Positions 8,113 through 32,065 of a stretch of 37,502 bases of DNA are shown in pieces. The position numbers and the translations under genes were made by a program. Source of the DNA: Alphaproteobacteria bacterium (GTDB lineage Bacteria; Pseudomonadota; Alphaproteobacteria; SMXP01); NCBI GenBank assembly GCA_021774995.1, contig JAJFIM010000064.1, positions 1 to 37,502 on the forward strand, given 5' to 3'. Position 1 is the stretch's first letter. Every line of letters begins with the position of its first letter. Below the pieces are notes generated by a model, which was given only the letters and a program-made list of their open reading frames with translations, was not told the origin of the DNA and made no database searches.

Positions 8113-8219
8113 AGTTTTACCAATGCTCAATAATTCCGTAACGTCCAGTCTTTTTTGAACTCTTGCAGCAGATTTTACTACACCGCTCTAAAGCAATAAT
8201 AGAGATGCTTTTTCTGCAA

Positions 8220-13178: not shown

Positions 13179-13373
13179 ATGATGACGGACGATCCAGAAA
13201 TTATGACGATTCGTGAGGTGGCGGAATATCTGCGCCTGACAGAAAAAACAGCTTATAGGTTTGCTCTAGAAGGCAAGATACCTGGTTTTAAAGTTGGTGC
13301 GGCGTGGCGTTTTAGAAGAGATGAGATTGTTACATGGACGAAATCTCAGAACAGGAACAAATCAGTGGCATAA
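13179..13373 (+). CDS. Small HTH_17 / excisionase-family (MerR-like) DNA-binding protein; probable operon regulator
   Basis: MTIREVAEYLRLTEKTAYRFALEGKIPGFKVGAAWRFRRDEIVTW is the canonical excisionase-family HTH. GAAGGA ribosome-binding site at 13171-13176, with tandem ATGs at 13179/13182. The stop lies 15 nt before the helicase gene. Confidence 0.7.
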   Translation: MMTDDPEIMTIREVAEYLRLTEKTAYRFALEGKIPGFKVGAAWRFRRDEIVTWTKSQNRNKSVA

Positions 13374-13388
13374 TAGAAAGGCTCCAAA

Positions 13389-16300
13389 ATGAACGTTTTC
13401 GATTTAGATAAATCGCTACTGCAGGACTACGAGAGATTCGCCCGCTCTTTCACACGGATAAAAGCAGAAGACATCAAAACCCAAGTAGACGAACTTTATG
13501 CAAGCAATCGTTTCTGGCCTGAGCCATTAATCACTATCAACCCTCATTATGAGCGCGGCAGCAGTGTTACAGATCTAGTCTCACAAGGTTTATTACATCC
13601 GGATACTGCAAAAATCTTTCAAATCGATGATAACCCGATCATTCTTCACAGACACCAAACACAAGCTGTATCAAAAGCATGTGCAAAAAATAGTTTTGTT
13701 GTCACAACAGGAACAGGATCGGGTAAATCCCTCTGCTTTTTTGTGCCCATTGTAGATCAAGCAGTAAGAGCAAGATCTGAAGGACAGGAACAAAAAACAA
13801 GAGCCATCATTGTGTACCCGATGAACGCCTTGGCAAATAGCCAACTGAAAGAAATCGAAAAATTTATTGAGCAATCGGGCCTTCCTGAACATTTAAAACC
13901 TTCTTTTGCTCGATATACAGGCCAGGAGAGTACGGAAGAGCGTGAACGTATTATGAAATCAAAGCCAGATATTTTGCTAACAAACTTCATGATGCTTGAG
14001 CTTTTGATGACTCGTCAGAATAAGCTGGATAGCACCGTAATTAATAACGCTAAAGATTTAGATTTTATTGTGCTTGATGAATTACACACTTATAGGGGGC
14101 GACAAGGTGCTGATGTTGCAATGCTTGTTAGAAGGCTCAAAGATCGCCTATGCCGGGATAAAGAACCTATTTGCATCGGAACATCCGCAACTATGGCAAG
14201 CGAGGGAGATACAGCAGAAACTGTAGCCGAAGTGGCCTCTAAGCTTTTTGGAGCATCAATAGGCTCAGACGCAGTCATTGATGAAAGCCTGCAAAGAGCA
14301 ACCAACCCGGAACTCACGCTAAAGGTAATCAAGAAAGATTTGCCCCTTGTTATTGATGAAGAAATCCCAGAGAAAATAAGTGACGCCACCCTACAAAATC
14401 ATCCGCTGGCAATATGGATTGAACTGGAAATAGGCCTTTCAGACCAGCAAAAATTAAAGCGACGGACACCTGTTACCCTCGACGATGCTGCCAAACGCCT
14501 CTCGAAAGAAATAAATTGTAATGAAGTACGGTGCCGAGAACAGCTGGAGAAAATACTTACTCTTATGAATATGCCTGAGGTTGACAGGGGTGGTAAAAAC
14601 GAAAGAGCCTTTATGGCATTTAAGCTTCATCAATTTATTTCCGGAGCTGGCCATGTTTACGCAACATTAAAAAGCAAAGGGCATCGAAAAATCACTTTAG
14701 AGGGGCAACGTTTTGACCCGGAAAACACTAATTCCAGGCTTTATCCGTCATTTTTCTGTAGAAATTGTGGCCAAGAATATCACCCTGTAACCTTATCTCA
14801 AGAAAGCGGCATTGACAGATTTATCCCAAGAGGAATAGACGAAACCCCCTTGGATGATGAGAATACGGGGGATATTGCTGGATATTTGATGCCAGAACCT
14901 GAAAATGACCCAGAATTTGTTTTCACCGCCTCACCCGATGACGAGTCTTTTCCTGAAGAATGGATTGAGCAAGGACCAAAAGGATCCAGAGTTCGCAAGG
15001 AGAAAAAGAAATTTATTCCTCTCCAGTATAATGTGGAAGCTAATGGAGAACCTTCTTCTGTTGGTATTAGAGCTTGGTTTTTACCTGGAAAATTCCGTTT
15101 TTGCCTGTGTTGCAAAGATCAACCTGCCGGTCAAACAAGAGAAAGGAATAAGCTTGCGGGATTGTCTGCTGAAGGTCGTAGTTCTGCAACAACGCTTCTT
15201 GTCTCAAGTGCGTTGCGATGGATGAATAAAAATAAAGATATCCCAGAAGATAAGAGAAAATTACTTTGTTTTACAGATAATCGACAAGACGCGGCATTAC
15301 AAGCTGGAAACTTTAATGACTTCTTATTTGTATCTTTGCTTAGAGCAGCTACCTTTGCTGCGGTAAAACAAGCTGGCGAGAAAGGCCTAGCCGAAGATGA
15401 GTTCGGCGCACAAATTCAAAAAGCACTCGGCTTTAATGCCGAAAATATTAATCGGCGTCGAGAATGGATGCAGGACTCTGAAATTAAGGGTGTTGGTATT
15501 TATGATGCGGAAAGAATTTTGTCTCGTGTTCTCTCCTACCGTGTATGGACAGATCAGAAACGTGGATGGAGATATACAAACCCTAATTTAGAACAGTTGG
15601 GTCTTGTCACTGCAAAATATGTTGGGATCGATGATATTGCATCTGATCAAGAATTTCTTTCAAATCTCAATGTACAAGGCTTTCAGTTAGAGCCTAGTTT
15701 ATTAAAAGAAGTTTTAGGTATTGTGCTTGATACCCTCCGCAAAGGCCTTGCAGTAACAACAGACTCATTGAACAGAACAAATACAGATACCATTTCACAA
15801 AGTTCACGACAACTTTTGAGAGAGCCATGGAGTATATCTCAAAATGAAATTCCGAGTATTGCTTCTTATTTGATTATTGATGCTCCGAGAAGAGATGAAT
15901 CAGGGCTGAGAGGCGAGTATCTGATCGTGAGAGGAGGACCAAGAAGCGCGCTAGGGAAAAAACTAAACAAAGAAAAATATTGGGGAAGAAGATTAACCGG
16001 CGAGGAATATAAGGTATTGATCGATAACTTGCTTCGTGTTGCATCTGAATATCAATTGGTACGTCGTGTATCCACACCATTTGATGTAGATGGTTGGCAG
16101 TTATCCGCAAATGCCATCAGGCTTATTCACGAAGAATCCGCCACCGAGGAAAAAAACAAATATTTTATTGATCTTTATAAATCTCTGTCAGACATTTTGA
16201 TTAATGGCGGTGATGGTATTTTTGGCATTGAAGGTCGAGAACATACGGCTCAAGTAGATCAAGAAAGAAGAGAATGGAGAGAATGGCGCTTTAGATGGAA

Positions 16301-18569
16301 TGACGATGATCGTCAAAAAATCGAAGAAAATAAAAATATAATGCGCCAGTCCAGTGAACCAACAGTCTTTTTACCAGCTCTTTTTTGTTCTCCAACTATG
16401 GAGCTTGGCGTTGATATTTCTGCTCTTAATACAGTTTACTTAAGAAATGTCCCACCTACACCCGCAAATTATGCCCAACGCTCTGGGCGGGCGGGCAGAT
16501 CGGGACAAGCAGCACTGATTGTAACTTATTGTGCAGCCCAAGGGCCACATGATCAATATTACTTCTCTAAACCTGCTGCAATGGTAAGCGGAGTTGTTTG
16601 TCCCCCTGCCTTGGATTTAACAAATAGAGATCTAGTAGAAGCGCATCTTCATGCTGTATGGCTTGCAGAGTCTAGAGAAGATCTTGCCAATGATATCCCC
16701 CATGTGCTGGATTTGAATGAGGAAAGCCTCCCAGTTCAAAAAGAACTTTTTGATGGCCTGTCCACCGGTAGTCTAAATGAGCGATCTCGGATTTCAATGA
16801 AAAGAGTTTTACTCAGCATTACAGATGAATTAGAAAAATTTAACCCGGCATGGGCAAAAGATACGAATGCCTTTGTAGAAAGTGTTGCTGATAATGCGGT
16901 ACAGAACTTTTCTAAAGCTTTTGATAGGTGGAGAGATTTATACAAAGGGGCACGTGCTCAGCTTATAGAGGCAAATAGAAAATCTGAAATGCACGGTTTG
17001 AGTGCGAAAGATAGAAAAGAAGCAAAAATTCAACAAGCTCAAGCAAATGAACAAATAACACTTTTGGAGCGCGGCAATAGCAGCGGTGGTTCCGATTTTT
17101 ATACATATAGATACCTTGCTACAGAAGGTTTTTTACCCGGCTATAATTTCCCCCGTTTACCATTATACGCTTACGTCCCTGCAGTAGGTTTTGGAAACTC
17201 CAAAGCATCCTATCTTCAAAGAGCACGGTTTTTAGCGATTGCAGAATTTGGTCCGGGTAGTCTTATTTATCACGAAGGAAGAGCTTACCGTGTTGTGAAA
17301 GCCAAGCTACCCCCTGGTATAAAAACAGAGGACGGCGGACGCATTGCCACAAATAGCATATACATATGTGATGATTGTGGTGCTGCACATGATAAAGAAG
17401 TGGAAACTTGTTACGCTTGTGGAGCAAGCCTCGCGGGAATACATCCCATAAGAAATGTTTTAAGAATTGATAACGTTGAAACAAAGCCAGCAGAACGTAT
17501 TACGGCGAACGAGGAAGACAGACAAAGGCAAGGATATGATATCCAGACTGTTTTTGCCTGGCCGAACAGAGATGGTGTAGTAGATGTTTGTACCTCTGTT
17601 GCATATGACTCTGAAGGGCCTGTAGTAAGGCTTGATTATGCTCCAGGAACCACAATCAGTAGAATTAACAAGGGCCTTAAACGTCGAAAAGAAAAGAGCA
17701 TCATGGGTTTCGGCATAGATCCATCAACCGGATGGTGGAAAGGTGGATTAGAAAATGCCGAAGAGCAAGAAACACCCGAAGGCGCGGTGACACAAAGAAT
17801 TGTTCCCATTGTTCAGGACAATAAGAACGCCGCACTTCTAAGGCTTCCGACCAAATCGTTATCTGAATCTTCTATGGCAACGCTCCAGCACGCGCTAGTA
17901 CGCGGGCTTGAATTGGTTTTCCAACTTGAAGAAGGTGAAACACTTGCTGAACCTGTTCCGTCAAACGAGAATAGAAGTGCAATTCTTTTCTATGAGGCAA
18001 CAGAGGGTGGCGCGGGCGTTTTAGGAAGATTATTAAGTCAACCTGATACTCTTGCAAATGTTGCAAGAACAGCGCTCGAGTTAATGCACTATAAAAATAT
18101 TGATAAGGCAGCAAAAACTGGAGATGTAATTTTACTGGAAGAGGAGAAAAATGCTCAATGCGTCAAAGGGTGTTACAGATGCCTTTTATCATACTACAAC
18201 CAGCCAGATCATGAACATATTGACAGAACAGACAATGATGTTCTGCAGTTATTGCTTAAAATGGCAGATAGCTGTGTAAAAGAGGAAAATAAATTTACAA
18301 ACACGCTATCCACTAATGAAAAAAACGACTGGCATGTGGCCATAAAAAATTGGGAAATTCCAAGCCCTGATGCAGAACCGCTAAAGTTAGATAAAATGAC
18401 GTTTACACTGGTTTGGAGGCCTTTTTTGACAGTTGCCGTCACAGATTCTGTAGAAAAGGAGCAAAAAGAAAAAATTGAAGCTTTGGGCTTCACTGTCATA
18501 GAACTCCCATCTTCTCCCGGATCTACTCCTCCTAAGAATTTATCAAAAACACTCGGGGTTGCTGCATGA
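13389..18569 (+). CDS. 1726-aa DEAD/DEAH-box helicase fused to a DUF1998 (MrfA-type Zn-binding) domain; DrmA+DrmB-like fusion / DruE-like
   Basis: Walker A is TTGTGSGKS (about 13707). Motif II is LDELHTYRGRQGADV, motif III is GTSATM, and motif VI is AQRSGRAGRSGQ (about 16480). The DUF1998 hallmarks are EGFLPGYNFPRLPL (about 17130), the Cys cluster CDDCGAAHDKEVETCYACG (17367-17420), and the terminal CVKGCYRCL (18159-18182). Confidence 0.9.
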   Translation: MNVFDLDKSLLQDYERFARSFTRIKAEDIKTQVDELYASNRFWPEPLITINPHYERGSSVTDLVSQGLLHPDTAKIFQIDDNPIILHRHQTQAVSKACAKNSFVVTTGTGSGKSLCFFVPIVDQAVRARSEGQEQKTRAIIVYPMNALANSQLKEIEKFIEQSGLPEHLKPSFARYTGQESTEERERIMKSKPDILLTNFMMLELLMTRQNKLDSTVINNAKDLDFIVLDELHTYRGRQGADVAMLVRRLKDRLCRDKEPICIGTSATMASEGDTAETVAEVASKLFGASIGSDAVIDESLQRATNPELTLKVIKKDLPLVIDEEIPEKISDATLQNHPLAIWIELEIGLSDQQKLKRRTPVTLDDAAKRLSKEINCNEVRCREQLEKILTLMNMPEVDRGGKNERAFMAFKLHQFISGAGHVYATLKSKGHRKITLEGQRFDPENTNSRLYPSFFCRNCGQEYHPVTLSQESGIDRFIPRGIDETPLDDENTGDIAGYLMPEPENDPEFVFTASPDDESFPEEWIEQGPKGSRVRKEKKKFIPLQYNVEANGEPSSVGIRAWFLPGKFRFCLCCKDQPAGQTRERNKLAGLSAEGRSSATTLLVSSALRWMNKNKDIPEDKRKLLCFTDNRQDAALQAGNFNDFLFVSLLRAATFAAVKQAGEKGLAEDEFGAQIQKALGFNAENINRRREWMQDSEIKGVGIYDAERILSRVLSYRVWTDQKRGWRYTNPNLEQLGLVTAKYVGIDDIASDQEFLSNLNVQGFQLEPSLLKEVLGIVLDTLRKGLAVTTDSLNRTNTDTISQSSRQLLREPWSISQNEIPSIASYLIIDAPRRDESGLRGEYLIVRGGPRSALGKKLNKEKYWGRRLTGEEYKVLIDNLLRVASEYQLVRRVSTPFDVDGWQLSANAIRLIHEESATEEKNKYFIDLYKSLSDILINGGDGIFGIEGREHTAQVDQERREWREWRFRWNDDDRQKIEENKNIMRQSSEPTVFLPALFCSPTMELGVDISALNTVYLRNVPPTPANYAQRSGRAGRSGQAALIVTYCAAQGPHDQYYFSKPAAMVSGVVCPPALDLTNRDLVEAHLHAVWLAESREDLANDIPHVLDLNEESLPVQKELFDGLSTGSLNERSRISMKRVLLSITDELEKFNPAWAKDTNAFVESVADNAVQNFSKAFDRWRDLYKGARAQLIEANRKSEMHGLSAKDRKEAKIQQAQANEQITLLERGNSSGGSDFYTYRYLATEGFLPGYNFPRLPLYAYVPAVGFGNSKASYLQRARFLAIAEFGPGSLIYHEGRAYRVVKAKLPPGIKTEDGGRIATNSIYICDDCGAAHDKEVETCYACGASLAGIHPIRNVLRIDNVETKPAERITANEEDRQRQGYDIQTVFAWPNRDGVVDVCTSVAYDSEGPVVRLDYAPGTTISRINKGLKRRKEKSIMGFGIDPSTGWWKGGLENAEEQETPEGAVTQRIVPIVQDNKNAALLRLPTKSLSESSMATLQHALVRGLELVFQLEEGETLAEPVPSNENRSAILFYEATEGGAGVLGRLLSQPDTLANVARTALELMHYKNIDKAAKTGDVILLEEEKNAQCVKGCYRCLLSYYNQPDHEHIDRTDNDVLQLLLKMADSCVKEENKFTNTLSTNEKNDWHVAIKNWEIPSPDAEPLKLDKMTFTLVWRPFLTVAVTDSVEKEQKEKIEALGFTVIELPSSPGSTPPKNLSKTLGVAA

Positions 18570-21331
18570 GCCTTTCTATATCACCAGGAGATCTTGTAAC
18601 CGCACGTGGTAGGGAATGGATAGCCCTCCCTTCACCAGAAAACGATTGTTTGTTTCTACGTCCCTTATCAGGTAGTGAGGAAGACTCTCAATATATAGCT
18701 CCTGATTTAGAACGTGAGCCTGTTCGGCTAGCTAGGTTTTATTTACCATCTAAAGAAGAGATTTCATCACAAGACGGCGCAAGATTATTATCAGAAGCTT
18801 TGAAATTGTCATTGCAGCGCGGTGCAGGACCTTTCCGCTCAGCTGGTAGGCTGTCTTTCGACCCCAGAGCCTACCAGTTAGTGCCATTATTAATGGCTCT
18901 TCGGTTGGCCACTGTCCGATTACTGATTGCTGATGACGTGGGGATTGGAAAAACCATAGAAGCTGGTTTAATCCTAAGGGAGTTTATAGATAGAGGGGAG
19001 ATTGATCGTTTCTCCGTTTTATGCCCTCCACATCTTGTTGAGCAATGGAGTGACGAGTTAAAATTAAAATTTGATATCGATGCCGTTTCTGTCACATCTA
19101 GTTCCGCAGCGAAACTTGAGAGATCATTATTGGATTCCCAATCACTCTTTGATGCTTATCCATATACCATTGTAAGCCTAGATTACATCAAGGCAGATAA
19201 ACGTCGAGACAATTTCGCAAGAGCTTGCCCGAAATTCGTAATTGTGGATGAAGCTCATGCATGTGTTGGTACGCATAAGGGCAAGCAGCAAAGATTTGAG
19301 CTGCTTAAACGCCTTACAGCGGATGAAGAGCGGCACATGATCCTTCTTACTGCCACACCTCATAGCGGTGATGAGTCTGCTTTTGATCGCTTACTAAGCT
19401 TACTTAATGAAACCTTTGCCGGTCATTCCCTTGAGGATGAAAATTCTCGTATCCAACTGTCACGCCATTTTGTTCAGAGACGGCGCATTGATATTGTCGG
19501 ACGTGAGTGGGGGGAAGAAAACACATTCCCTAAGCACGAAACAACTGAAAACACCTATTCTCTAAATAACGAGCATCGTAATTTTCATGAAGCTATCTTG
19601 GACTACTGCTTAGAAATTGTTGAAAAAGCAGGACAAGATCAGAGGAAAAGACGTTTAGCATTCTGGGGGACGTTAGCATTAATGCGTTGTGTTGGATCTT
19701 CTCCCGCTTCTGCATTGAGTGCTTTGCGTAACAGAATTTCAGTTAATCCTGATAGCCTCGAAGAGCAAATTTTTGATGATGACGCAGACGAAAATGATGC
19801 GGCAGATGTAGAACCTTCCTCTGGGTTCTCTGGAGATTCACAACTGCAGTCATTGATTACACAAGCTGAACTTTTGACAAAATCTAGTGACCCTAAATTG
19901 GAAGAGACTATTAAAGTTCTTAAGCCTCTGATTAAAGAAAAGGCCAATCCGGTGATTTTTTGCCGTTATATAGCGACTGCTCACCATGTCGCAAAAGGGT
20001 TAAGAAAAATATTTCCAAAACTTCGCATTGAAGTAGTGACAGGCGAACTCGCCTCTGAAGAACGACGAAGGCGGGTTGAAGATATGGCAAAATCAGATCA
20101 GAGGCTATTGGTCGCAACAGACTGTCTGTCCGAAGGTATCAATTTGCAAGATTTGTTCGATACAGTCTTGCATTACGACCTTTCTTGGAATCCTACACGT
20201 CATCAACAACGGGAAGGACGTGTTGACCGTTTTGGACAAACTGCACCACTTGTTAGATCAGTTTTGCTTTATTCTCCCGATAGTGCAATTGACGGTGCTG
20301 TTCTTGATGTGATTTTAAGAAAAGCCGAAGCAATCCGCAAAGCAACTGGTGTAACAGTACCCTTACCGGAAGAGCGTGGTGCTATAACCAATGCTCTGAT
20401 GAAGGCAGTATTACTTCGTAAAAGTGATAAACTTCAATATGAGCTTGACCTTTTTGACGACTATCAAAAGGTAGAGGCTCGCTGGAGAGATGCAGAAGAA
20501 GGCGAGAAGCGTTCGCGCACACGTTTTGCCCAGAATGCCATTAAACCGGAAGAAGTAGCCCCGGAATGGAAAAGATGGAAAAAACTTCTGGGTACATCAG
20601 AAGAAGTTGAGCGTTTCATAATGCGCTCAATGAGTCGATTTGATGCTGCTCTGGAGCCTTCAAAAAACTATACATATTTAGCTCATCTTGAGGCACTTCC
20701 CTCTGCTCTTGTTGAAAGACTGGAAAATAGAAATCTGCGAGGATCAATCAACGTAGCTTTTACTGAAGACCGCACTCCATCAGGAGCCAAGATTATTGGA
20801 CGAAACCATCCATTAACCAGCATTTTGGCAGAGTCCCTTTTTGAAGGAGCACTTGACCCTATTTCAAGTCCGCTTGACCCTCTTGGGCGTATGGGAGCAT
20901 GGACGACCGCTGACGTACAATCAATGACAACATTAGCACTTCTCCGCCTACGCTATAAACTGACTGTTCATGGTCGAAAAGAGCGCGTCCTTCTTGTCGA
21001 AGAAGCTGAAGCTCTTGCTTTCGAAGGGCTGTCCGACCAGCCTATATTAACAGGAGAGCAAGCCAGAAACCTTTTGGAACATAAGGCTGCAGGTAATATT
21101 ACGGACACAGCCAGAGATCGTCTTTTACAGCAAGCACATGAGCGCATTTCTCAAGCTTTAGACAACAGCATTTCTGTTTATGCTCAAGAGCGTGCTGTCC
21201 TGCTAGAAAAAGAACATGGGCGTGTACGTGATTGCTATCCATCCCATATAACAGCGCCAAAGGTCAGTGTTGAGGTTGTCTTGCCAGCGGATATCGTGGG
21301 CATTTTTGTTTTAGTTCCGGCGGGGGTGTAG
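18566..21331 (+). CDS. SNF2-family helicase (DrmD-like)
   Basis: ADDVGIGKTIEAG (motif I), IVDEAHAC (motif II), LLTATPHSG (motif III), LVATDCLSEGINLQ, and HQQREGRVDRFGQ (motif VI). There is an ATGA overlap with the upstream gene. Confidence 0.9.
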   Translation: MSLSISPGDLVTARGREWIALPSPENDCLFLRPLSGSEEDSQYIAPDLEREPVRLARFYLPSKEEISSQDGARLLSEALKLSLQRGAGPFRSAGRLSFDPRAYQLVPLLMALRLATVRLLIADDVGIGKTIEAGLILREFIDRGEIDRFSVLCPPHLVEQWSDELKLKFDIDAVSVTSSSAAKLERSLLDSQSLFDAYPYTIVSLDYIKADKRRDNFARACPKFVIVDEAHACVGTHKGKQQRFELLKRLTADEERHMILLTATPHSGDESAFDRLLSLLNETFAGHSLEDENSRIQLSRHFVQRRRIDIVGREWGEENTFPKHETTENTYSLNNEHRNFHEAILDYCLEIVEKAGQDQRKRRLAFWGTLALMRCVGSSPASALSALRNRISVNPDSLEEQIFDDDADENDAADVEPSSGFSGDSQLQSLITQAELLTKSSDPKLEETIKVLKPLIKEKANPVIFCRYIATAHHVAKGLRKIFPKLRIEVVTGELASEERRRRVEDMAKSDQRLLVATDCLSEGINLQDLFDTVLHYDLSWNPTRHQQREGRVDRFGQTAPLVRSVLLYSPDSAIDGAVLDVILRKAEAIRKATGVTVPLPEERGAITNALMKAVLLRKSDKLQYELDLFDDYQKVEARWRDAEEGEKRSRTRFAQNAIKPEEVAPEWKRWKKLLGTSEEVERFIMRSMSRFDAALEPSKNYTYLAHLEALPSALVERLENRNLRGSINVAFTEDRTPSGAKIIGRNHPLTSILAESLFEGALDPISSPLDPLGRMGAWTTADVQSMTTLALLRLRYKLTVHGRKERVLLVEEAEALAFEGLSDQPILTGEQARNLLEHKAAGNITDTARDRLLQQAHERISQALDNSISVYAQERAVLLEKEHGRVRDCYPSHITAPKVSVEVVLPADIVGIFVLVPAGV

Positions 21332-21334
21332 ATC

Positions 21335-24300
21335 ATGGCAAAAATTCGTAAATCCTCTTCCATCATTTTCGACTCCCTGACACTGGAAGGTAGCCTGATT
21401 GCCCCGGCCATGCTGGAACGCATTGCTGCTCGTGAAGCCGGAGAGCAGAGCGAAACGGCCTATAGCATCCCCAAAGGGCTGACCTTGCGTGATGAAATTG
21501 CCCGCTATTTCCGCATCGGCCAAGCCCTGTTTGATGAACTTAATAAATCAGACGAACCCACTACAGCAGCAACAATCAGCTTCACAGAAAACCTTTTGCG
21601 CGATATTTTCGCTTTTCAAGACATTAAACATACAAGCACTCGCACGCTGGATGAGCACAACTATGCTGTCACGCTGGAAGCACTTGATGGTCGTGTGCCG
21701 GTTGTGATTGTTCCTCCATCAGATGCTCTTGATCGTGCCAGTGATCACTTGCCAACGGATGGTCGCAAACGCTCTGCTGCGACCGCTATCCAAGATTGGT
21801 TAAATGCGGATGAAGATTCGTTATGGGGCTTCTGCTGTAACGGCGATCGTCTACGTCTTGTTCGTGACAACGCTAGCCTGACTCGTCCGGCTTATATTGA
21901 GGCCGATCTGCGCCAGATTTTTGAAAACGATAATTTTGCTGACTTTACAGCTCTATGGCTCTTGATTCATGTCAGTCGTTTTGGGCTAAAAGATTCCTCC
22001 GTTTCCGATTGCGCACTTGAACGTTGGAAAGAATCCGGTAGCAAAGAAGGCGTTGCTGCCCGTGATCGTCTGCGGGACGGAGTACAGGAGGCTCTTCTTG
22101 CTCTTGGAAACGGTTTTCTGGCGCACACTCAAAATGATGATTTACGGCAGAAAATTGAAAATGGCGAACTTCCGCTACAAGACTTCTTTACCCAGCTTTT
22201 ACGCCTTGTTTACCGTATGATCTTTTTACTGGCCGCAGAGGATCGCAATCTCCTTCACACACCAAATGCAGTTATTGCTGTTCGTAAGCTCTACCAGGCC
22301 GGTTATTCCCTTGATAATTTACGGAAACAATCTATTCGCCGTGCTGCCTGGGATCGTCACTATGATAAATGGGAAGGTCTACTGATTGTTTTTGCCGCTC
22401 TGGCAAATGGAGAAGAACGCCTCGGCCTCCCTGCACTCAGCGGATTATTCGCAAGCGATACAACGCCTGATCTGGATCAAGCACACTTATCCAACAAATC
22501 ACTGATGGAGGCCATTTACCGTTTAGCCTGGTTGAAAGAAGACCACCGTCTAACTCCAGTTAATTGGCGGGATATGGAGACAGAAGAATTAGGTTCTGTC
22601 TATGAAAGCTTGCTGGAGCTAACCCCGCGTCTAAACGGTGATGGCTGGCGTTTTTTCTTTGCAGAGGGAGCAGAAACAAAAGGAAATGCTCGCAAGACCA
22701 CTGGTAGCTATTATACGCCTGACTCGTTGGTACAGGCCTTACTCGACTCTACGCTTGATCCCGTTTTGGATCGGGTAGAGCGGGAAAGCGAAAATCCAGA
22801 GAAAGCGTTGCTCTCTCTTTCTGTTATTGATCCGGCCTGTGGTTCCGGCCACTTCCTGTTGGCTGCGGCGCGGCGGATTGCCAGCCGGGTGGCGCGTTTA
22901 CGCGCTGGCGGTGTAGCCTCAGCGGAAGATTATCGCCATGCCCTGCGCGATGCCGTGCGCAACTGCGTTTACGGTGTGGATCGTAATCCGATGGCGGTAG
23001 AGCTAACCAAAGTCGCACTTTGGATTGAAACCGTTGAACCGGGCAAGCCGCTCGGTTTTCTCGATGCCAATATTCGCTGCGGTGATGCACTGCTCGGCGT
23101 ATTTGATCTGGAAACCCTGCGCGAAGGTATTCCCGATGCGGCTTATAAACCGCTGACCGGTGATGATAAACCCACAGCAAGAGATTACGCCAAGCGTAAC
23201 AAGGCAGAAAAAGGGGGGCAAGGCACTCTTGATTTTTCCAGAGGAAAATCCGCACTGCCGCCACCGCCACCACTGGCAAAAGCAGCCAAACACCTCCGAA
23301 ATCTGCCCGAGGACAGCGTTAAACAAATTTCCGAAAAGAAACAAAAATTCGTAGCGGCACAAAATGATCCCCAGCGACAAAAATGGCGCGTGGCAGCAGA
23401 TATGCTTGTCGCTGCCTTTCTGGCCAAGAAAACAAAAGATGACCCGCCAGACAAAATATCATCTACCATTCCCACCACGGCGCATATGTGGCAACAACTC
23501 ACAGATGGTTGTTCTCATGGTCCTTTGCTGAACAAAGTACAAGATCTAGCCAGTAAAGCCCGCGCTTTCCACTGGCCGCTTGAATTTCCGGAAATCACGG
23601 AACGTGGTGGTTTCGATGTTGTGCTCGGAAACCCGCCGTGGGAACGCATAAAATTACAAGAGCAAGAGTTCTTTGCTTCTCGTGACACAGAAATCGCAAA
23701 GGCTCCTAACGCTGCCGCCCGGAGAAAATTAATTTCTGCATTGGCACAGGCCATGCACGGATCCCGTGAACGATCTTTGTTTGATGAATTTGAAGAAGCC
23801 AAACGTCTGGCTGAAGCTGCCTCTCTTTTTTCGCGTGAAAGTGGACGTTATCCGTTTACGGGACAAGGAGATGTTAATACATATGCTCTCTTCGCCGAGC
23901 ACTTTAAGAACATGATCAGCCTACATGGACAAGCTGGAGTGATTGTTCCGACAGGCATTTCTACAGATTCTACAACTGCACCTTTTTTTGCCTCCTTAGT
24001 AAAAGAAAAACAGTTGGTTAGATTGATTGATTTTGAAAATCGCGAGAAAATTTTCCCTGCTATTGATAGTCGTATAAAATTTTGTCTACTTACTATGGGG
24101 AATAATGTGGAGAAAGCCGCTTTCTCTTTCTTTTTAACAAATCCTTTGCAAATGTCTGAGGAAGAACGACAATTTACTCTGTCTCCAGAACAAATTGTTA
24201 ATATCAATCCCAACACTAAAACTGCCGCCATATTTCGTTCTCGTAGAGATGCGGAACTAGCTTCCAAAATCTATAGTTCCTTTCCTATTTTGTTTAAGGA

Positions 24301-25789
24301 AAATAATAAACATGACGGTAATTTATGGAGTATATCTTTTATGACTATGTTTCATATGTCTGGAGATAGCGATCTGTTTTATACAGCCAATCAATTAACG
24401 AGAAAGGACTTTAAAAGTATTGGTATTAACTGGGTTCTAGGACAGGAAAATTATGTGCCTTTATATGAAGGAAAAATGGTTCATTTATATGATCATAGAT
24501 TCAGCACCTTTGAGAATTACACACAACGGCCGCCTAAAGGAGCTAGTTTGCCTAACCCCAATAGTGAACAGCTCTCAAATCCCAATTATGCAGTTGCTCC
24601 TTGGTATTGGGTTGAAAAAGATCACGTTGAAAACAAGCTCTCTAATTATGATAAGAATTGGCTTTTGGGGTTCAGAGATTCTACAAATGCTACAAATGAA
24701 AGAAGTCTTATAGTTTGCGTTATTCCCAAAGTTGGATTAAATCACAAATTTCCAATTATTATTTCGCCATATCCATCAAAAACTCTTTGCTGCCTGTATG
24801 CTAATTTGGCATCAATTATTCTTGATTATATTGTTCGCCTTAAATTAGGTGGAACATCAATGACATATCATTACGTCAAGCAGTTTCCAATACTTCCTCC
24901 TTCCACTTACACAAATACTGCTCTCGACTTTATCGTTCCGCGCGTGCTGGAGCTAACCTATACCAGTCACGCGATGGAACCTTTTGCCCGTGATTTGGGT
25001 TATGATGGGCAGCCATTTGCTTGGGATGAAGAGCGCCGTGCTCTACTGCGGGCGGAACTAGATGCTTGGTATGCCAATGCCTACGGTTTGACCCGTGATG
25101 AGCTACGCTATATCCTTGATCCTGCTGATATCATGGGAGAGGACTACCCATCTGAAACCTTCCGCGTCCTTAAGAATAAGGAAATCAAGGAATACGGTGA
25201 ATACCGCACAAGCCGCCTCGTACTAGAGGCTTGGGACAGGATGTATGAGGAAGAGATTCAAATACCCGTACAACAAATCTCTGCAAATGCATGGGCAACA
25301 CCGCCCGCTGTGCTGCCTCAAAACATCGCCATGTTTGCCATTATGGATATTATGCACACAATGGGACAGAACGTACCGGAGCAAAAAGCCCGCCTGGCGG
25401 CTCTCTTAGCGCGAAAACCAGCACTGGCGCTTCCCTTCATGGATGATACACAAAAAGCGGAATGGCAGCGTGTGGTTGGTCAGGAAGCTCAACCTTTGCC
25501 CGATAATGTTGTTCCGATTACCGACTTTCAGAATAATCAGGGCGCAGACCATGCCTGGGGCGAAGCAATGCGTCAGCTTGAAGGTTCAGGCGCACTGATC
25601 CGGCAAAACGGCATCTGGTCGACGGGAGTACAACCTGGCTCCTCGGGACAGGGCTGGATGGAAAGCCGCGTGCAAGAAATAATAGACATTGTTGATAACA
25701 TCGATGATATCCAAGCCGCATACGACAATATAATCATCTTATTCCTGCAGGAGGTCCACAATGGTGCGGCAAGGCGAGCTGTTTCCTAG
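21335..25789 (+). CDS. 1484-aa gamma-class N6-adenine DNA methyltransferase (Eco57I/DrmMI-like)
   Basis: GSYYTPDSLV, motif I VIDPACGSGHFLLAAARRI, VYGVDRNPMAVELTKVALW, and motif IV VVLGNPPWERIK. There are large N- and C-terminal extensions. The gap to the SNF2 gene is 3 nt. Confidence 0.9.
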   Translation: MAKIRKSSSIIFDSLTLEGSLIAPAMLERIAAREAGEQSETAYSIPKGLTLRDEIARYFRIGQALFDELNKSDEPTTAATISFTENLLRDIFAFQDIKHTSTRTLDEHNYAVTLEALDGRVPVVIVPPSDALDRASDHLPTDGRKRSAATAIQDWLNADEDSLWGFCCNGDRLRLVRDNASLTRPAYIEADLRQIFENDNFADFTALWLLIHVSRFGLKDSSVSDCALERWKESGSKEGVAARDRLRDGVQEALLALGNGFLAHTQNDDLRQKIENGELPLQDFFTQLLRLVYRMIFLLAAEDRNLLHTPNAVIAVRKLYQAGYSLDNLRKQSIRRAAWDRHYDKWEGLLIVFAALANGEERLGLPALSGLFASDTTPDLDQAHLSNKSLMEAIYRLAWLKEDHRLTPVNWRDMETEELGSVYESLLELTPRLNGDGWRFFFAEGAETKGNARKTTGSYYTPDSLVQALLDSTLDPVLDRVERESENPEKALLSLSVIDPACGSGHFLLAAARRIASRVARLRAGGVASAEDYRHALRDAVRNCVYGVDRNPMAVELTKVALWIETVEPGKPLGFLDANIRCGDALLGVFDLETLREGIPDAAYKPLTGDDKPTARDYAKRNKAEKGGQGTLDFSRGKSALPPPPPLAKAAKHLRNLPEDSVKQISEKKQKFVAAQNDPQRQKWRVAADMLVAAFLAKKTKDDPPDKISSTIPTTAHMWQQLTDGCSHGPLLNKVQDLASKARAFHWPLEFPEITERGGFDVVLGNPPWERIKLQEQEFFASRDTEIAKAPNAAARRKLISALAQAMHGSRERSLFDEFEEAKRLAEAASLFSRESGRYPFTGQGDVNTYALFAEHFKNMISLHGQAGVIVPTGISTDSTTAPFFASLVKEKQLVRLIDFENREKIFPAIDSRIKFCLLTMGNNVEKAAFSFFLTNPLQMSEEERQFTLSPEQIVNINPNTKTAAIFRSRRDAELASKIYSSFPILFKENNKHDGNLWSISFMTMFHMSGDSDLFYTANQLTRKDFKSIGINWVLGQENYVPLYEGKMVHLYDHRFSTFENYTQRPPKGASLPNPNSEQLSNPNYAVAPWYWVEKDHVENKLSNYDKNWLLGFRDSTNATNERSLIVCVIPKVGLNHKFPIIISPYPSKTLCCLYANLASIILDYIVRLKLGGTSMTYHYVKQFPILPPSTYTNTALDFIVPRVLELTYTSHAMEPFARDLGYDGQPFAWDEERRALLRAELDAWYANAYGLTRDELRYILDPADIMGEDYPSETFRVLKNKEIKEYGEYRTSRLVLEAWDRMYEEEIQIPVQQISANAWATPPAVLPQNIAMFAIMDIMHTMGQNVPEQKARLAALLARKPALALPFMDDTQKAEWQRVVGQEAQPLPDNVVPITDFQNNQGADHAWGEAMRQLEGSGALIRQNGIWSTGVQPGSSGQGWMESRVQEIIDIVDNIDDIQAAYDNIIILFLQEVHNGAARRAVS

Positions 25790-27734
25790 TCCCGTAGAAA
25801 CGATCACGGTGGATGCAGCGCGCAGTGAGCCGCGCTTATGGATTCGCAGGCTCGTTATCTGGGAAACGCCTGAGAAAATTCTGCAAGATATTTCGTTGCG
25901 CCGGGGCCTCAATATCGTTTATTCCCCGGATCCCGGAACACAGGCGGCCATACTGGGGCAAAAAGGCGGGAGCGGTCACGGGGTTGGAAAAACATTGCTT
26001 TGCCGTTTTCTGCGTTATTGCCTTGGTGAAGATACATTTGCGCACGATGATCTGCGGCGGGATATTCAGAGCAAATTTCCCGAAGGTCTGGTTGGCGCTG
26101 AAGTTATGGTTAAAGGTCAATTATGGTCGGTTATCCGCCCCATTGGTGCAACCAGAAAACATATTGCCCAGCCAGATATAGCGCTTGGAGATCTGCTCAC
26201 GAGTCAGGACGACAATGCTGATATTGCGCTCTATTTCAGTGCGCTCAATGACTTGATTGCCGATACTGTGGATCATAACATTCCGGGCAGCCATGAATGG
26301 AAACGCTGGATTTTTGCGCTGGCCTGGCTTAGCCGGGATCAGGAAAGCCGTTTTTCAAATCTATTGGACTGGCGCCATCCTGATGCCGATACGCGCTCTC
26401 CCGTCCGGGATACCTCCGTAGACCAGAGAAACATTATTATTCGCTCTTTTCTTAACATTATGACCGATGAGGAATTAACGGCTCAGGGACAAAGGGACGC
26501 TCTTTCCCAGAAGAAAAGTGACCTGACCCAGAATATCAGTCATCTCAAACACAGCACTCAGGGTCTTTCAGGTGAAGTTGCCTCTGGTTTGGGACAGGCA
26601 GAACAATCGGGCGTGGAGCCTCTGGAAGCTGATGTGCTTTTGAAAGTGGCACAAGAAAATCTTAATGCAACAGATAACACACCTGCTGACGGTACGTTAA
26701 AAACAGCCATTGCCGGTAAACGCGAAGAGCTTGAAGCACTGGTATCGCAAAAAGCCCTGCTTACAAAGAAACAGGAGGAATTTGATGGTCTGATTGCTAT
26801 TCAAGAAGATCATATTGGGGTTCTGAAAGGTGAAAAGGCAAACCTGGATGCTAACGCCATTAAAGCCCGGCTAGGAGAAGTTTGCCCCGTCTGTAGCGTT
26901 CCCATTGATGAAGCGCTGGCGGAAGGCTGTGGGCTTTCACATGTATTGCCGGATAAAGATAAGGTCGAACAGGATGCCAGTCAGGTTGAAACAAAAATTA
27001 CAGTCTGTAAACAGGCAATCACCAACTATCAGCAGCATAAAAAAAATAATGATACAGCGTTACAAAACCTTGAAATTCAAATTCAGGATACACGTCAACA
27101 AATAGAAAATCTTGAAGGCCGTGCAAATCAGGAGCGTAAAGACCAAAGGCAAAAGTGGTTCATAGCCAAATCTCTTCACCTTCAAGCAGAAAAACTTGTA
27201 AAAGAATTGGAGCAATTGAAGGTCGATGAAGCAGAATTGCAGGACGTACCTGAAAAAGAACAGCAATTGCGTGAAACCTTACAAAATCTACGTTCAAAAC
27301 ATTCAGAAATCATGACACGTATGCAGGAACTTTTCGTATATGTCTGCCAAGGATTCCTCGGAGATAAAGAAGCAAAGCTGGAACTCACTGGCAAAGGTAT
27401 TCAAGCCACAGTAACCACCGGAGGAACCGCTATGGAAACCGTAAAAGTTATAGCTTTTGATCTGGCAACAATGTTTATGAGCCTTGAAGGAAGGAGCTTT
27501 TTACCCTCTTTTCTTATTCATGACAGTCCCCGTGAAGGTGATTTGGGAGAATCAATCTATCACCGCCTCTTCAATTTTATGGCGGACATGGAGGGGTTAA
27601 AAGAAGAGCCTTTATTCCAATATATTGTTACGACAACATCTGCTCCCCCGGAAAAATTCGTAAAGGATCCCTATCTCGTTTTACAACTTGATGGGCAGGA
27701 AGATGAAAACCGCCTGCTAAAAACCAGCCTTTAG
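25761..27734 (+). CDS. Rad50/SbcC-like SMC-fold ABC ATPase with a long coiled coil and a CPVC zinc-hook-like motif
   Basis: AGGAGG ribosome-binding site 7 nt before ATG 25761. The N-terminal head is RLWIRRLVIWE...LRRGLNIVYS with the P-loop GGSGHGVGKT. Residues about 230-520 are heptad-rich, with CPVC (26883-26894) at the midpoint. The C-terminal head has the Walker B/D-loop SFLIHDSPREGDL. Confidence 0.7.
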   Translation: MVRQGELFPSPVETITVDAARSEPRLWIRRLVIWETPEKILQDISLRRGLNIVYSPDPGTQAAILGQKGGSGHGVGKTLLCRFLRYCLGEDTFAHDDLRRDIQSKFPEGLVGAEVMVKGQLWSVIRPIGATRKHIAQPDIALGDLLTSQDDNADIALYFSALNDLIADTVDHNIPGSHEWKRWIFALAWLSRDQESRFSNLLDWRHPDADTRSPVRDTSVDQRNIIIRSFLNIMTDEELTAQGQRDALSQKKSDLTQNISHLKHSTQGLSGEVASGLGQAEQSGVEPLEADVLLKVAQENLNATDNTPADGTLKTAIAGKREELEALVSQKALLTKKQEEFDGLIAIQEDHIGVLKGEKANLDANAIKARLGEVCPVCSVPIDEALAEGCGLSHVLPDKDKVEQDASQVETKITVCKQAITNYQQHKKNNDTALQNLEIQIQDTRQQIENLEGRANQERKDQRQKWFIAKSLHLQAEKLVKELEQLKVDEAELQDVPEKEQQLRETLQNLRSKHSEIMTRMQELFVYVCQGFLGDKEAKLELTGKGIQATVTTGGTAMETVKVIAFDLATMFMSLEGRSFLPSFLIHDSPREGDLGESIYHRLFNFMADMEGLKEEPLFQYIVTTTSAPPEKFVKDPYLVLQLDGQEDENRLLKTSL

Positions 27735-27754
27735 TGCAAATTAAGGTACAGAAA

Positions 27755-28486
27755 ATGAACATTCAAAACCCACCCAGTGCAGTGATTTCTATTGAAGCGC
27801 AGAAAGCCGCATTTGATAACGGTTATCGAATTGAACATGATATTCGTGATGGCTGGCTACATTATCGTTCAGCCACTGTATCAGATGAAATTGCAATCTC
27901 AGGATCTTCTGATCACGGGCCATGGCACTTAAATATTACCCATGAGGGCGCACAGCAAGAATTAGGATCATCTACTTTTAGTTTCGATAGGCTGGCCGAT
28001 TTGTATAGCACACTTGATAAAGTTTACCGCCTAAGTGCCAGCTTGCCTGATGTTCCATTACAACGCTTTCAAGAGGAACAGGCAAAGCTTCCTAAAACAA
28101 CAGAGGCTGAGAGACTGGTTATTCAGCGTGTTGGGCAGAACCTTTTCCGTGAGGCACTGCTTACCTATTGGCACGAAAGGTGCCCTCTTACCGGTATTAC
28201 GGACACAACTCTTTTGCGTGCATCTCACATTGTATCATGGGCCGAGTGTGAGTCCGACGCTCAAAGATTGGATGTACATAACGGTCTTTTATTATCCGCC
28301 TTGTGGGATGCGGCATTTGATAAAGGACTTGTTAGTTTTAACAATGATGGATCGGTACTGGTATCCCCTAATCTAAGCAGAGAGGCGAGATGTTCTCTTG
28401 ATATTGAAAAAGCTCCAAGACTTACCGATTTAACCGAAGAACACCATAAAAATCTTGATGCTCACCGTAAGAAAAACGATTTTTGA
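27755..28486 (+). CDS. HNH (HNH_2-type) endonuclease with an uncharacterised N-terminal domain
   Basis: QRVGQNLFREALLTYWHERCPLTGITDTTLLRASHIVSWAEC...DVHNGLLLSALWDAAFDKGLVSF is the PF13391-type HNH pattern. The start is either ATG 27755 (AAGG upstream) or GTG 27734, which overlaps the ATPase stop. Confidence 0.75.
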   Translation: MNIQNPPSAVISIEAQKAAFDNGYRIEHDIRDGWLHYRSATVSDEIAISGSSDHGPWHLNITHEGAQQELGSSTFSFDRLADLYSTLDKVYRLSASLPDVPLQRFQEEQAKLPKTTEAERLVIQRVGQNLFREALLTYWHERCPLTGITDTTLLRASHIVSWAECESDAQRLDVHNGLLLSALWDAAFDKGLVSFNNDGSVLVSPNLSREARCSLDIEKAPRLTDLTEEHHKNLDAHRKKNDF

Positions 28487-29982: not shown

Positions 29983-30510
29983 TTAGAATATCCATTCATA
30001 TGTTCGATCGCTGCCTATGATTTCGATGTAATCATTCAGGTCGGAGGGCGCAGAAATTGGAACGTAAGAATCTCCTGCCATATCGAAAAACAGAATACTT
30101 GGCGGCAAGCCGTAAATATCTGGTCTGCGCAAACGTATTTGTATTTTTGTCAAAGAAGCCAGCGGCGTTGGGAATTTAAACCATGCCTTCAAACTTGAGC
30201 TTCCCGTATCGCTCCAATGTGGATTGCTAGTGCCAGGCCACAGCGAAACCCATTGTGTAATATTGCCGTTATAATCGCTATCCGTGTTGTATTCACCAGA
30301 CGCCAAATCACTAAACCCCGTTATGATTTGCTGAGCAGGATTGGACGCAGCCATGGATTCCACGATGTCGGCGACATCTCCATAAATGGCAATTTTTGTT
30401 GGACCGATCCAATTGGTCGTATAGTTAAAATCAATCAAAAGCCCGTCAAGAACCGCGCTTTTTGCCTTATGTTTTGTATGAGCCATAAATTGGCCGGGTG
30501 ATAAAAGCAT
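29983..30510 (-). CDS. Hypothetical phage-associated protein (175 aa)
   Basis: ATG 30510 overlaps the upstream stop (TAATG), which suggests coupling to the lysis cassette. No motif recognised. Confidence 0.5.
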   Translation of the reverse strand: MLLSPGQFMAHTKHKAKSAVLDGLLIDFNYTTNWIGPTKIAIYGDVADIVESMAASNPAQQIITGFSDLASGEYNTDSDYNGNITQWVSLWPGTSNPHWSDTGSSSLKAWFKFPTPLASLTKIQIRLRRPDIYGLPPSILFFDMAGDSYVPISAPSDLNDYIEIIGSDRTYEWIF

Positions 30511-32043: not shown

Positions 32044-32065
32044 TTTTATTCTCCTGTTTTGGTTT

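Follow-up and report, generated by a model that had tools for sequence, protein, structure and literature searches.

A five-gene form of the ARMADA Type I operon with a predicted exchange of nuclease and a LmuB-like ATPase linked to the methyltransferase

Which anti-phage system is encoded by an operon that joins a Druantia-like helicase to DISARM-like partners, and what is the work in it of two further genes, an SMC-like ATPase and an HNH nuclease, that follow its methyltransferase? The operon lies on contig JAJFIM010000064.1 of the assembly GCA_021774995.1 (Alphaproteobacteria bacterium); positions 1 to 37,502 of this contig are the stretch of DNA that was analyzed as a whole, here called the window. 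In an earlier sequence-only reading, the operon was seen as a class 1 DISARM system in which DrmA and DrmB were fused, the PLD nuclease DrmC was missing and the ATPase and the HNH nuclease stood in its place as a single ATP-gated effector. The explanation that we favor, and that taken as a whole appears to us rather probable, is a different one. The locus would be an ARMADA Type I anti-phage system carried by a mobile element, in a five-gene form with the roles proposed below, and its HNH protein would replace, as a nuclease acting in trans, the Vsr-type nuclease domain that is fused to the helicase of its relatives.

ARMADA, the "disARM-related Antiviral Defense Array", was named by Bell et al. 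(2025, bioRxiv; PMC12458937) and is defined by a Druantia-like YprA helicase together with a DISARM-like SNF2 protein and methyltransferase (PMC12458937). With class 1 DISARM it shares the BrxHII-like SNF2 helicase and the PglX-like methyltransferase (PMC12458937). Its Type I, which is more widespread than Type II, forms a clade that groups with Druantia, apart from DISARM and Dpd, and was described as three genes located on mobile elements in the order YprA, SNF2, methyltransferase (PMC12458937). The Type I helicase normally ends in a predicted active Vsr-type PD-(D/E)xK nuclease, a tail that is given as typical of the type and not as a strict definition (PMC12458937). Its other features are a BrxA-like insert after RecA1, a beta-barrel zinc-binding module and a MarR-like insert in RecA2.

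The core trio and its family

The locus consists of six consecutive open reading frames (ORFs) on the plus strand (Table 1). Their coordinates are those of the earlier reading, and a check at the level of single bases also agrees with it at every junction: a 15-nucleotide gap separates the helix-turn-helix (HTH) gene from the helicase gene, the helicase stop and the SNF2 start overlap as ATGA at 18566–18569, a gap of 3 nucleotides (ATC) precedes the methyltransferase (MTase) gene, and the MTase and ATPase ORFs share 29 nucleotides, with an AGGAGG at 25749. The HNH gene could start either at a GTG (27734) that overlaps the ATPase stop or at an ATG (27755) after a gap of 20 nucleotides. In all five enzymes (helicase, SNF2, MTase, ATPase and HNH) the catalytic motifs are intact.

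The order helicase, SNF2, MTase is that of ARMADA Type I and is the same in at least 55 related loci. As the sequence-only reading had recognized, helicase and OB-CON-DUF1998 (MZB) parts form one DruE-like chain of 1726 residues. The best PADLOC match of this chain is DruE (1e-90), which surpasses DrmA (4e-16) by about 75 orders of magnitude; such DruE-like matches cover only parts of the protein. It is 36–68% identical to the helicases of about 150 related loci and, over nearly the full length, 36–53% identical to those on contigs that Table S1 of PMC12458937 lists as "ARMADA Type I helicase", which include L050 (S. stutzeri TS44), L056 (R. multihospitium) and L021 (A. rudongensis), three loci that the search with the ATPase had brought up. 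The same table contains the Planktothrix protein BBD57063.1, the helicase homolog of locus L084, and Mesorhizobium AR02 CP080530, which also encodes a homolog of the ATPase. The helicase motifs are GSGKS110 and DELH230, and CxxC pairs are present at 457, 572, 1327, 1341 and 1595; of these, the pairs at 457 and 572 would fit the zinc-binding module of ARMADA Type I.

The SNF2 protein (BrxHII/RapA-like; motifs GIGKT126 and DEAH228) matches the PADLOC DpdE model PDLC02853 over its full length with 7.5e-194 and DrmD with 2e-73; in NCBIfam it scores 278.6 bits with DrmD (cutoff 610) and 190 with DpdE (cutoff 500), and the NCBIfam DpdJ model gives 87 bits (cutoff 800). The MTase matches DrmMI (3.7e-74) and also REase_MTase_IIG in PADLOC, and carries motif I as VIDPACGSG497 and motif IV as NPPW766, the motif whose mutation abolishes ARMADA II defense (PMC12458937). 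Since no equivalog of NCBIfam reaches its curated cutoff in the operon proteins, the operon is neither a canonical DISARM nor a canonical Dpd or Druantia system. By its sequence, the core trio of ArmC-like helicase, ArmA-like SNF2 protein and ArmB-like MTase is a member of the ARMADA Type I clade.

The claim of a methylation-associated defense operon related to class 1 DISARM stands; the class 1 label itself has to be given up. Class 1 DISARM (DrmD, DrmMI, DrmA, DrmB and DrmC) resembles the present operon in its related SNF2 protein, its large N6-adenine MTase, its DUF1998-associated helicase and its presumed methylation-based discrimination. However, its helicase and DUF1998 are encoded by separate genes and its nuclease is the PLD protein DrmC, whereas here the helicase is fused and belongs to another clade. 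We consider it very improbable that the locus is a class 1 DISARM variant with a fused DrmA–DrmB and a replaced DrmC. Such a variant would account for the PADLOC matches to DrmD, DrmMI (4e-74 when rounded) and DrmA, and ARMADA does share its SNF2 and MTase genes with class 1 DISARM; but all the NCBIfam DISARM equivalogs remain far under their cutoffs (for DrmD, 279 bits against 610), the helicase is far closer to DruE than to DrmA, the homologous loci have been assigned to ARMADA Type I, whose clade falls with Druantia and apart from DISARM/Dpd, and no PLD nuclease occurs in the related loci examined.

Published ARMADA Type I agrees with this operon in the order of the three genes, in their families and in carriage by mobile elements; it differs in that its Vsr domain is predicted to be active, whereas here a degenerate Vsr domain is accompanied by a separate HNH gene, an extension of the MTase and an overlapping ATPase gene. 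ARMADA Type II (ArmABCD; E. coli NCTC 12900 and EDL933), whose defense is direct and non-abortive (PMC12458937), is composed of the same three core protein families, and its essential Walker and NPPW motifs are conserved here. Its order, however, is SNF2-MTase-YprA, and its fourth gene, ArmD, encodes a RelE-GajB/UvrD-like helicase and neither an SMC-like ATPase nor an HNH protein. In Druantia, especially Type III (DruHE), DruE is likewise a YprA helicase with a C-terminal nuclease, but Druantia is devoid of SNF2 and of a PglX-type MTase, and the DruE nuclease domains are PLD-type (PMC12458937). None of the Druantia partners (DruH, DruA–D, DruM, DruF and DruG) was found in the operon beyond a marginal match of DruC (1e-3) to the coiled coil of the ATPase.

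Two other candidates were rejected. Hma (PADLOC; PMC8565338) combines in three genes a helicase, a 5-methylcytosine (m5C) methyltransferase and an ATPase, whereas the MTase here is of the N6-adenine/Eco57I kind and Hma has no YprA helicase; HmaB and HmaC gave no PADLOC match, and HmaA only a weak one (2e-54, ranked fourth). Dpd was considered on account of the DpdE model matched by the SNF2 protein, but its NCBIfam cutoffs are not reached, and the window contains none of the 7-deazaguanine insertion genes (dpdA–C) that go with the DpdE/DpdJ helicases. Two labels probably lead to wrong annotation of loci of this kind: the PADLOC "DpdE" model PDLC02853, which spans the ARMADA SNF2 protein from end to end in the absence of Dpd genes, and "chromosome segregation protein SMC", the name under which the Prokaryotic Genome Annotation Pipeline (PGAP) lists the ATPase of locus L081.

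The helicase tail and the HNH gene

Alignment of the helicase C-termini across loci reveals two types of tail. In loci without an HNH gene the tail reads RPDF...(V/I)Y(V/I)DGPPH...GYxVIRF; in those that bear one, this helicase included, it is shorter and has neither PDF nor DGPPH. The intact tail of locus L001 passes the Vsr-like Pfam family DUF559 with 21.3 bits (cutoff 20.6), and the tail of the helicase studied here has no Pfam match, DUF559 included. The two tail families are nonetheless homologous (hhalign probability 98%, E 1e-12, 114 columns). In their alignment the catalytic PDF has become l.W, and VDGPPH is lost along with a deletion of 10 residues. Judged by these residues, the Vsr domain of this helicase is degenerate and catalytically dead.

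The state of the tail can be compared with the presence of the HNH gene in two collections of loci. Relatives of the ATPase occur in 395 species-representative genomes (one genome per species), from which 80 ATPase-anchored loci were kept and searched by tblastn with the proteins of this operon. In this set all 38 loci without the Vsr motif have an HNH gene and none of the 18 with the motif has one. An independent SNF2-anchored plasmid set contributed a further five Vsr-less loci, each with HNH, and six Vsr-keeping loci of which five are without it, a count that includes a Streptomyces variant (PDLVF...VFVDLSDH) and in which Chlorohelix is ambiguous. When the sets are pooled, HNH is present in 43/43 Vsr-less loci and absent from 23/24 Vsr-keeping ones; the Fisher p of 5e-15 is nominal, the loci being related to one another.

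The earlier reading had the HNH and ATPase genes occupy the place of the PLD nuclease DrmC. It was correct that the operon contains no PLD nuclease: none was found in the window, in 10 alternative downstream genes that were scanned or in 12 annotated plasmid loci. What the HNH protein replaces, however, would be the Vsr-type domain of the helicase. The HNH gene is not bound to any one predecessor, and follows the MTase directly, without an ATPase, in L088 (Sphingomonas sp. MM-1) and L089 (At. caldus); its start overlaps or abuts the preceding gene, be it ATPase or MTase, in 37 of 39 cases. Across loci, the identities to this operon's proteins rise and fall together for the helicase, the SNF2 protein, the MTase core and HNH (correlation rho 0.96, 0.82 and 0.60, the first being that of helicase and SNF2); the HNH identity follows SNF2 (rho 0.60) and not the ATPase (rho 0.19).

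The HNH protein matches the PADLOC HNH model PDLC04132 (3e-29), and its catalytic residues H165, N183, D192 and D196 are invariant; the view that it looks catalytically competent stands. By family profile its nuclease domain is akin to the HNH domain found in VcaM4I, an EVE-HNH enzyme (E 1e-22), and there is a weak NCBIfam match to a phosphorothioate DNA (PT-DNA)-binding restriction endonuclease. The N-terminal domain (residues 1–96) is predicted with a confident fold (pLDDT, the predicted local distance difference test, >90), and has no significant relative among Pfam, PADLOC and PDB-sequence profiles or, with the full HNH model, in Foldseek. These properties invite another reading of the gene, as an independent Type IV enzyme that serves as a back-up against phages with modified DNA and does not replace Vsr, its separate and well-folded N-terminal domain being the potential reader. 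We regard this as improbable: an independent enzyme would hardly be distributed in such complementarity to the intact Vsr motif, start in overlap with whichever gene precedes it and co-vary with the core genes, and its N-terminal domain does not resemble EVE, SRA, SBD or any further known reader.

In the loci without HNH, the genes found downstream instead (ImmA/IrrE-HTH, reverse transcriptase, UvrD-like helicase, SLFN/AlbA_2) belong to many small unrelated families, and we judge them to be neighboring defense genes and not components of the system. Individual loci show some further rearrangements. In L058 (11878–12720; Acidobacteriaceae) the HNH gene is apparently frameshifted across its catalytic region in the alignment, and may be a pseudogene or an assembly error. 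In L083 (A. soli CP119212, 16585–19682) a HEC-03A/HEC-03B pair with an NsnB-like ATPase is inserted between MTase and HNH; this ATPase is part of an embedded HEC-03/NsnB-like system and no relative. A Phd/VapC pair separates SNF2 and MTase in L089 (At. caldus, 13791–14425). In L088 (Sphingomonas sp. MM-1 pISP0, 1–5691), the helicase gene directly follows three genes on the same strand, for a nuclease like RecB, an exonuclease like SbcD and an SbcC-like "AAA family ATPase", an arrangement that may be a different supply of a Rad50-type module.

The ATPase and the methyltransferase extension

The ATPase matches the PADLOC LmuB model PDLC03859 over its full length (3.6e-25). Its AlphaFold2 model (pLDDT 83) has a split ABC head and a long antiparallel coiled coil with the apex at about 357–398, and is most similar in Foldseek to B. 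subtilis YydD (5e-16), followed by four Lamassu LmuB structures (4e-14 to 6e-11), with Rad50, SMC, JetC, MukB and RecN among the further matches; a profile search of the PDB sequences returned no LmuB match. The predicted structure confirms a Rad50/SMC fold, as the sequence-only reading had proposed. Invariant in the family, which is large and nearly entirely unannotated, are the P-loop GHGxGK(T/S) (72–78), the Q-loop RDQ (Q194), GG554–555 as a remnant of the signature, HDSPRE (Walker B and acidic residue; D588, E592) and DLG. The zinc hook that had also been proposed is upheld in part. The apex of the coiled coil carries an invariant CPxC (C375, C378), but a third invariant Cys (C390) follows 11 residues on; a His comes after the apex Cys residues in only 14 of 25 sequences. 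The apex is zinc-hook-like, and an inter-chain site, as in Rad50, and an intra-chain one would both fit.

The gene for this ATPase is linked to that for the MTase tightly and over a wide range of bacteria (Acidobacteriota, Alpha-, Beta- and Gammaproteobacteria, Myxococcota, Spirochaetia, Latescibacterota, Desulfuromonadia, Binatia and others). The MTase gene is directly upstream in 76 of the 80 loci, and wherever enough DNA lies upstream, the genes for helicase, SNF2, MTase and ATPase run collinearly in one orientation. The exceptions are L053, in which an insertion sequence (IS) element lies within the MTase gene, L005, which has only a C-terminal piece of the MTase, and the orphan ATPases of L046 and L080, for which there is no conserved alternative partner. 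The stop of the MTase gene and the start of the ATPase gene overlap in 78/78 loci (one locus, L014 = L081, is included twice in the counts of 78), mostly by 17 nucleotides and by 29 in the subgroup of this operon. Nonetheless, the ATPase-bearing subtype is a minority form within ARMADA Type I: 8 plasmid records contain the ATPase, against 73 with the helicase, and it is absent from the SNF2- and helicase-anchored loci sampled from Cyanobacteria, Deinococcota, Actinomycetota and Chloroflexota.

This linkage extends into the MTase protein itself. The MTase alignment reaches residue 1422 or beyond in 78/78 ATPase loci and stops at 1299–1353 in 10/10 ARMADA loci without the ATPase, from which it follows that a C-terminal extension of about 150 residues exists only with the ATPase. 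In L005, the extension is a stand-alone ORF of 293 residues directly before the ATPase. All its matches in a library of 1.8 billion proteins have it at the very C-terminal end, either of Eco57I-type MTases or of HsdS-like specificity proteins. Among the latter are recurrent proteins of about 630 residues (P0326, P0341 and others) that consist of HsdS-like target-recognition domains (Methylase_S) and the C-terminal extension domain, which suggests versions in which the MTase has its specificity part in a subunit of its own.

Unlike the HNH gene, the ATPase does not co-vary with the core (rho -0.19). The extension varies with the ATPase (rho 0.34, p 0.002) and not with the core of the MTase that it is part of (rho -0.20), and in this operon the extension and the ATPase are closest to Acidobacterial loci, the other genes being closest to a different set. 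Exchange of a cassette formed by extension and ATPase would give this pattern of identities. The base composition is also mosaic: the operon has a G+C of 0.40–0.45, lower than its flanks (about 0.50), and within the MTase gene the value is 0.36 in 24001–25000, against 0.48–0.51 before, and leaps to 0.52 in 25001–26000, where the extension and the ATPase gene start. Such a mosaic is consistent with a swapped target-recognition region and with a recombination junction of the extension–ATPase cassette.

Do the ATPase and the HNH protein act together? The sequence-only reading joined them as one ATP-gated effector pair. This does not survive the comparison: the ATPase co-varies with the MTase extension, and at least 18 loci have the ATPase without HNH and with no effector gene downstream. 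As each gene occurs without the other, the two are not one unit. The same results bear on another possibility, that two adjacent systems are present, a three-gene ARMADA Type I operon and a Lamassu- or Septu-like pair of ATPase sensor and HNH effector that works by itself, for instance through abortive infection. Both the profile and the fold of the ATPase are LmuB-like, its history differs from that of the core, pairs of an ABC/SMC-type ATPase and an HNH protein are known in defense (Septu; type I-A retrons, PMC12475279), OLD-ABC and HNH dyads accompany BREX (PMC12839542), and small systems do embed in such operons, as do HEC-03 in A. soli and Phd/VapC in At. caldus. We think the existence of two separate systems quite unlikely, however, given that the HNH gene lacks the ATPase in L088 and L089 just as the ATPase lacks HNH elsewhere, that the ATPase is away from an ARMADA MTase in only 2 of 80 loci, that its ORF always overlaps an MTase whose extension is specific to ATPase loci, that the presence of HNH follows the state of the helicase's own nuclease domain, and that LmuA, LmuC, PtuA and PtuB have no PADLOC matches.

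The systems that such a pair would recall differ from the operon in other respects. Lamassu (LmuA-LmuB-LmuC), with its ancestor SbcCD/Rad50-Mre11, has like this operon a LmuB-like ATPase with a CxxC apex, an upstream partner and an associated nuclease; but the partner of Lamassu is LmuC, whereas here it is a domain fused to a DNA methyltransferase, and Lamassu, unlike the non-abortive ARMADA II, works through abortive infection. Neither LmuA, the Lamassu effector with a C-terminal domain that binds LmuB, nor LmuC matched the HNH protein, the MTase extension or the neighboring genes. In Septu (PtuA ABC ATPase and PtuB HNH) and in the OLD-ABC and HNH dyads near BREX an ABC-type ATPase is followed by HNH, as here, yet their ATPases are of the OLD/AAA_15 type and the present one, with its long coiled coil, belongs to the Rad50/SMC/LmuB type, nor do the two genes here form an obligate pair; PtuA and PtuB had no PADLOC match to the ATPase or to HNH at E <= 0.01. 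The BREX-related "BR" systems with OLD-ABC and HNH dyads (PMC12839542) were rejected as well, being centered on DUF499 and having another ATPase family.

Taking DISARM, ARMADA II, Druantia III and Lamassu as analogs, we infer a function in defense, a methylation-based discrimination and the following roles for the ATPase and HNH. The methyltransferase would mark the host DNA as self, and the YprA and SNF2 translocases would engage the unmethylated DNA of an invader or its single-stranded replication intermediates, as has been reported for DrmAB and DruE. HNH, recruited via its N-terminal domain, would then take over from the lost Vsr domain the cutting of the invader DNA. The ATPase would dock on the MTase extension, as LmuB does on LmuC or SbcC on the C-terminal domain of SbcD, and could add an ATP-dependent recognition of DNA ends or replication structures that licenses or focuses the response. 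LmuB and Rad50/SbcC are "CxxC SMCs" that recognize DNA ends and gate a nuclease, and LmuC and the SbcD C-terminal domain are encoded directly upstream of the ATPase (PMC12663957); it is because the extension holds this same upstream position that we propose it as the dock. We put forward, tentatively, that the extension may be a LmuC/SbcD-CTD-like adaptor, which tethers a DNA-end sensor of the Rad50/LmuB type to a complex for methylation-based discrimination.

The main alternative for the role of the ATPase is that it serves the modification arm, as a DNA-clamping or scanning cofactor by which the very large MTase would locate or process its sites, comparable to the SMC-like DndD in phosphorothioation, with HNH as the only added effector. 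We think it rather unlikely, though several facts are in its favor: the ATPase is coupled to the MTase by overlap, extension and co-variation, it is present alike with Vsr in cis and with HNH in trans, and in MTases and HsdS-like proteins alike the extension invariably comes after the part that recognizes the target. However, most ARMADA Type I systems, including all those sampled from Cyanobacteria, Deinococcota and Actinomycetota, methylate without the ATPase, and LmuB and Rad50/SbcC sense DNA ends and gate nucleases and do not aid modification (PMC12663957). Furthermore, the MTase is itself thought to act in restriction; because the NPPW mutant of ARMADA II loses defense, the coupling to the MTase does not separate the restriction arm from the modification arm.

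Several points weigh against the explanation that we favor, a five-gene ARMADA Type I system with HNH in place of Vsr and an ATPase docked on the MTase. The experiments on ARMADA cover Type II only (PMC12458937). The complementarity of Vsr and HNH is not phylogenetically independent and may reflect one or a few ancestral events, and the core of the HNH structural model has low confidence. As the VcaM4I-type family is modification-dependent (Type IV), HNH could target modified and not unmethylated DNA. The extension has no relative in Pfam, PADLOC or PDB, and shows no detectable resemblance to LmuC or SbcD; the docking of the ATPase on it is deduced from co-occurrence, gene overlap and co-variation. 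Lastly, Figure 1 of the ARMADA paper might draw extra genes.

Genomic setting and significance

The genes surrounding the operon are those of mobile elements and of defense (Table 1). Beyond the features tabulated, a SWIM-like protein and a calcineurin-like phosphoesterase are also encoded upstream, in the region 3998–8840.

Table 1. Position and matches of the operon genes, their subdivisions and the flanking features in the window
Feature	Position	Strand	Remarks
HTH ORF	13071/13179-13373	+	Pfam HTH_17 1.4e-14
Helicase ORF	13389-18569	+	1726 aa (amino acids); Pfam DEAD 88-271, Helicase_C 977-1039, MZB 1499-1599
SNF2 ORF	18566-21331	+	921 aa; Pfam SNF2-rel_dom, Helicase_C
MTase ORF	21335-25789	+	1484 aa; Pfam Eco57I 1.6e-21, N6_Mtase 2.8e-10
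ATPase ORF	25761-27734	+	657 aa; Pfam DUF2326 weak, under Pfam cutoff
HNH ORF	27734/27755-28486	+	250/243 aa; Pfam HNH_2 8.4e-11
Predicted degenerate Vsr/DUF559-type domain, helicase C-terminus	18213-18566	+	hhalign to intact Vsr-type tails
MTase core part	21335-25201	+	PglX/Type IIG-like N6-adenine DNA methyltransferase, ArmB-like
MTase C-terminal extension	25202-25789	+	about aa 1300-1484; found only alongside the ATPase
AbiEi antitoxin-like	3998-4846		upstream; no obvious AbiEii
HipA kinase toxin	4875-6098	-	small ORF after it
Large serine recombinase, then two ParB/RepB-like genes	8918-12301	+	directly upstream of the operon
DUF4268 protein	28572-29564	+	PADLOC candidate PDC-S11 full length, E 2e-130; 85 nucleotides past HNH
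Prophage late region	29983-37266	-	Rz1-like LysC, pectate-lyase-like tail fibre/spike, DUF6950, large ORFs without Pfam hits

The HTH gene had been counted as the first member of the operon. It is packed against the helicase gene, but among 70 metagenomic loci anchored on the helicase just one has a homolog upstream of it, and no further family of small upstream genes is conserved in this set. Because the HTH gene is not conserved, the conserved unit is one of five genes that starts at the helicase. In NCBIfam the HTH protein has 44.8 bits with the "excise" domain (cutoff 28.8) and 70.8 with MAD1, under the cutoff of 80; ATG 13179 is its plausible start, since GTG 13071 adds a hydrophobic and non-homologous leader. 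We regard the gene as a local addition, either a local regulator or a gene of the mobile element. A scan of the operon for promoters and terminators was uninformative, with counts at or under the shuffled expectation.

The five-gene module recurs in different flanking contexts, and the closest relatives of the ATPase (67–76% identity) lie in the same five genes, of near-identical lengths. As one close relative adjoins Fic, relaxase and ArdA genes, the module appears to travel as a unit between mobile elements. The closest HNH homolog is in a metagenome-assembled genome labelled Alphaproteobacteria; the operon had no DNA match in 5,426 complete genomes of E. coli. In the metagenomic locus L143 (100–3346) homologs of the recombinase and the two ParB/RepB-like genes (51%, 42% and 39% identity) are again upstream of an ARMADA helicase, which suggests a family of integrative elements with the ARMADA operon as cargo; in the Thermus locus L087, too, a helicase is preceded by a ParB-like gene. 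Since the DUF4268/PDC-S11 gene adjoins none of roughly 90 related loci, it is taken for a separate single-gene defense candidate in the same island. The prophage flank gave no nucleotide match in a collection of 50,697 phage records.

That this exact arrangement was new had been surmised, and no prior description of it was found in the literature searched. The text of the ARMADA paper (PMC12458937) contains no mention of SMC, ABC, Rad50 or Lamassu, and the words HNH and ATPase occur once each, in its reference list; its supplements give helicases and domain annotations only; the mBio paper on ARMADA II and the Druantia preprints of 2026 do not treat accessory genes of Type I; and our literature search, whose scope did not include the survey of ABC ATPases by Krishnan et al. 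(2020), returned no account of a five-gene form with ATPase and HNH. The core family is known, but the five-gene form (degenerate Vsr, HNH in trans, MTase extension and LmuB-like ATPase) is undescribed in this literature.

ARMADA was named only in 2025, and this locus with its roughly 400 relatives defines a subtype of it with two features. As to the first, Vsr has decayed exactly where HNH appears, and on this basis we argue that cutting of DNA is for ARMADA an output both essential and modular, and that its effector is identified. The second, a Rad50/LmuB-like ATPase tied to the MTase, points to a mechanistic link between the methylation-based systems (DISARM, BREX and ARMADA) and the SMC-based ones (Lamassu, Wadjet and SbcCD). 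Such loci are easily mislabelled, because current catalogues report the operon as separate pieces of DruE, DpdE/DrmD, DrmMI and LmuB, and the ATPase receives the name SMC from PGAP. If the proposed mechanism is true, two principles of recognition, that of unmethylated DNA and that of free ends or aberrant replication structures, would be joined in one system, and the nuclease module, whether Vsr in cis or HNH in trans, would be freely exchangeable downstream of recognition. It would then be the first instance of an SMC-family sensor built into a restriction-modification-like system by way of its modification enzyme.

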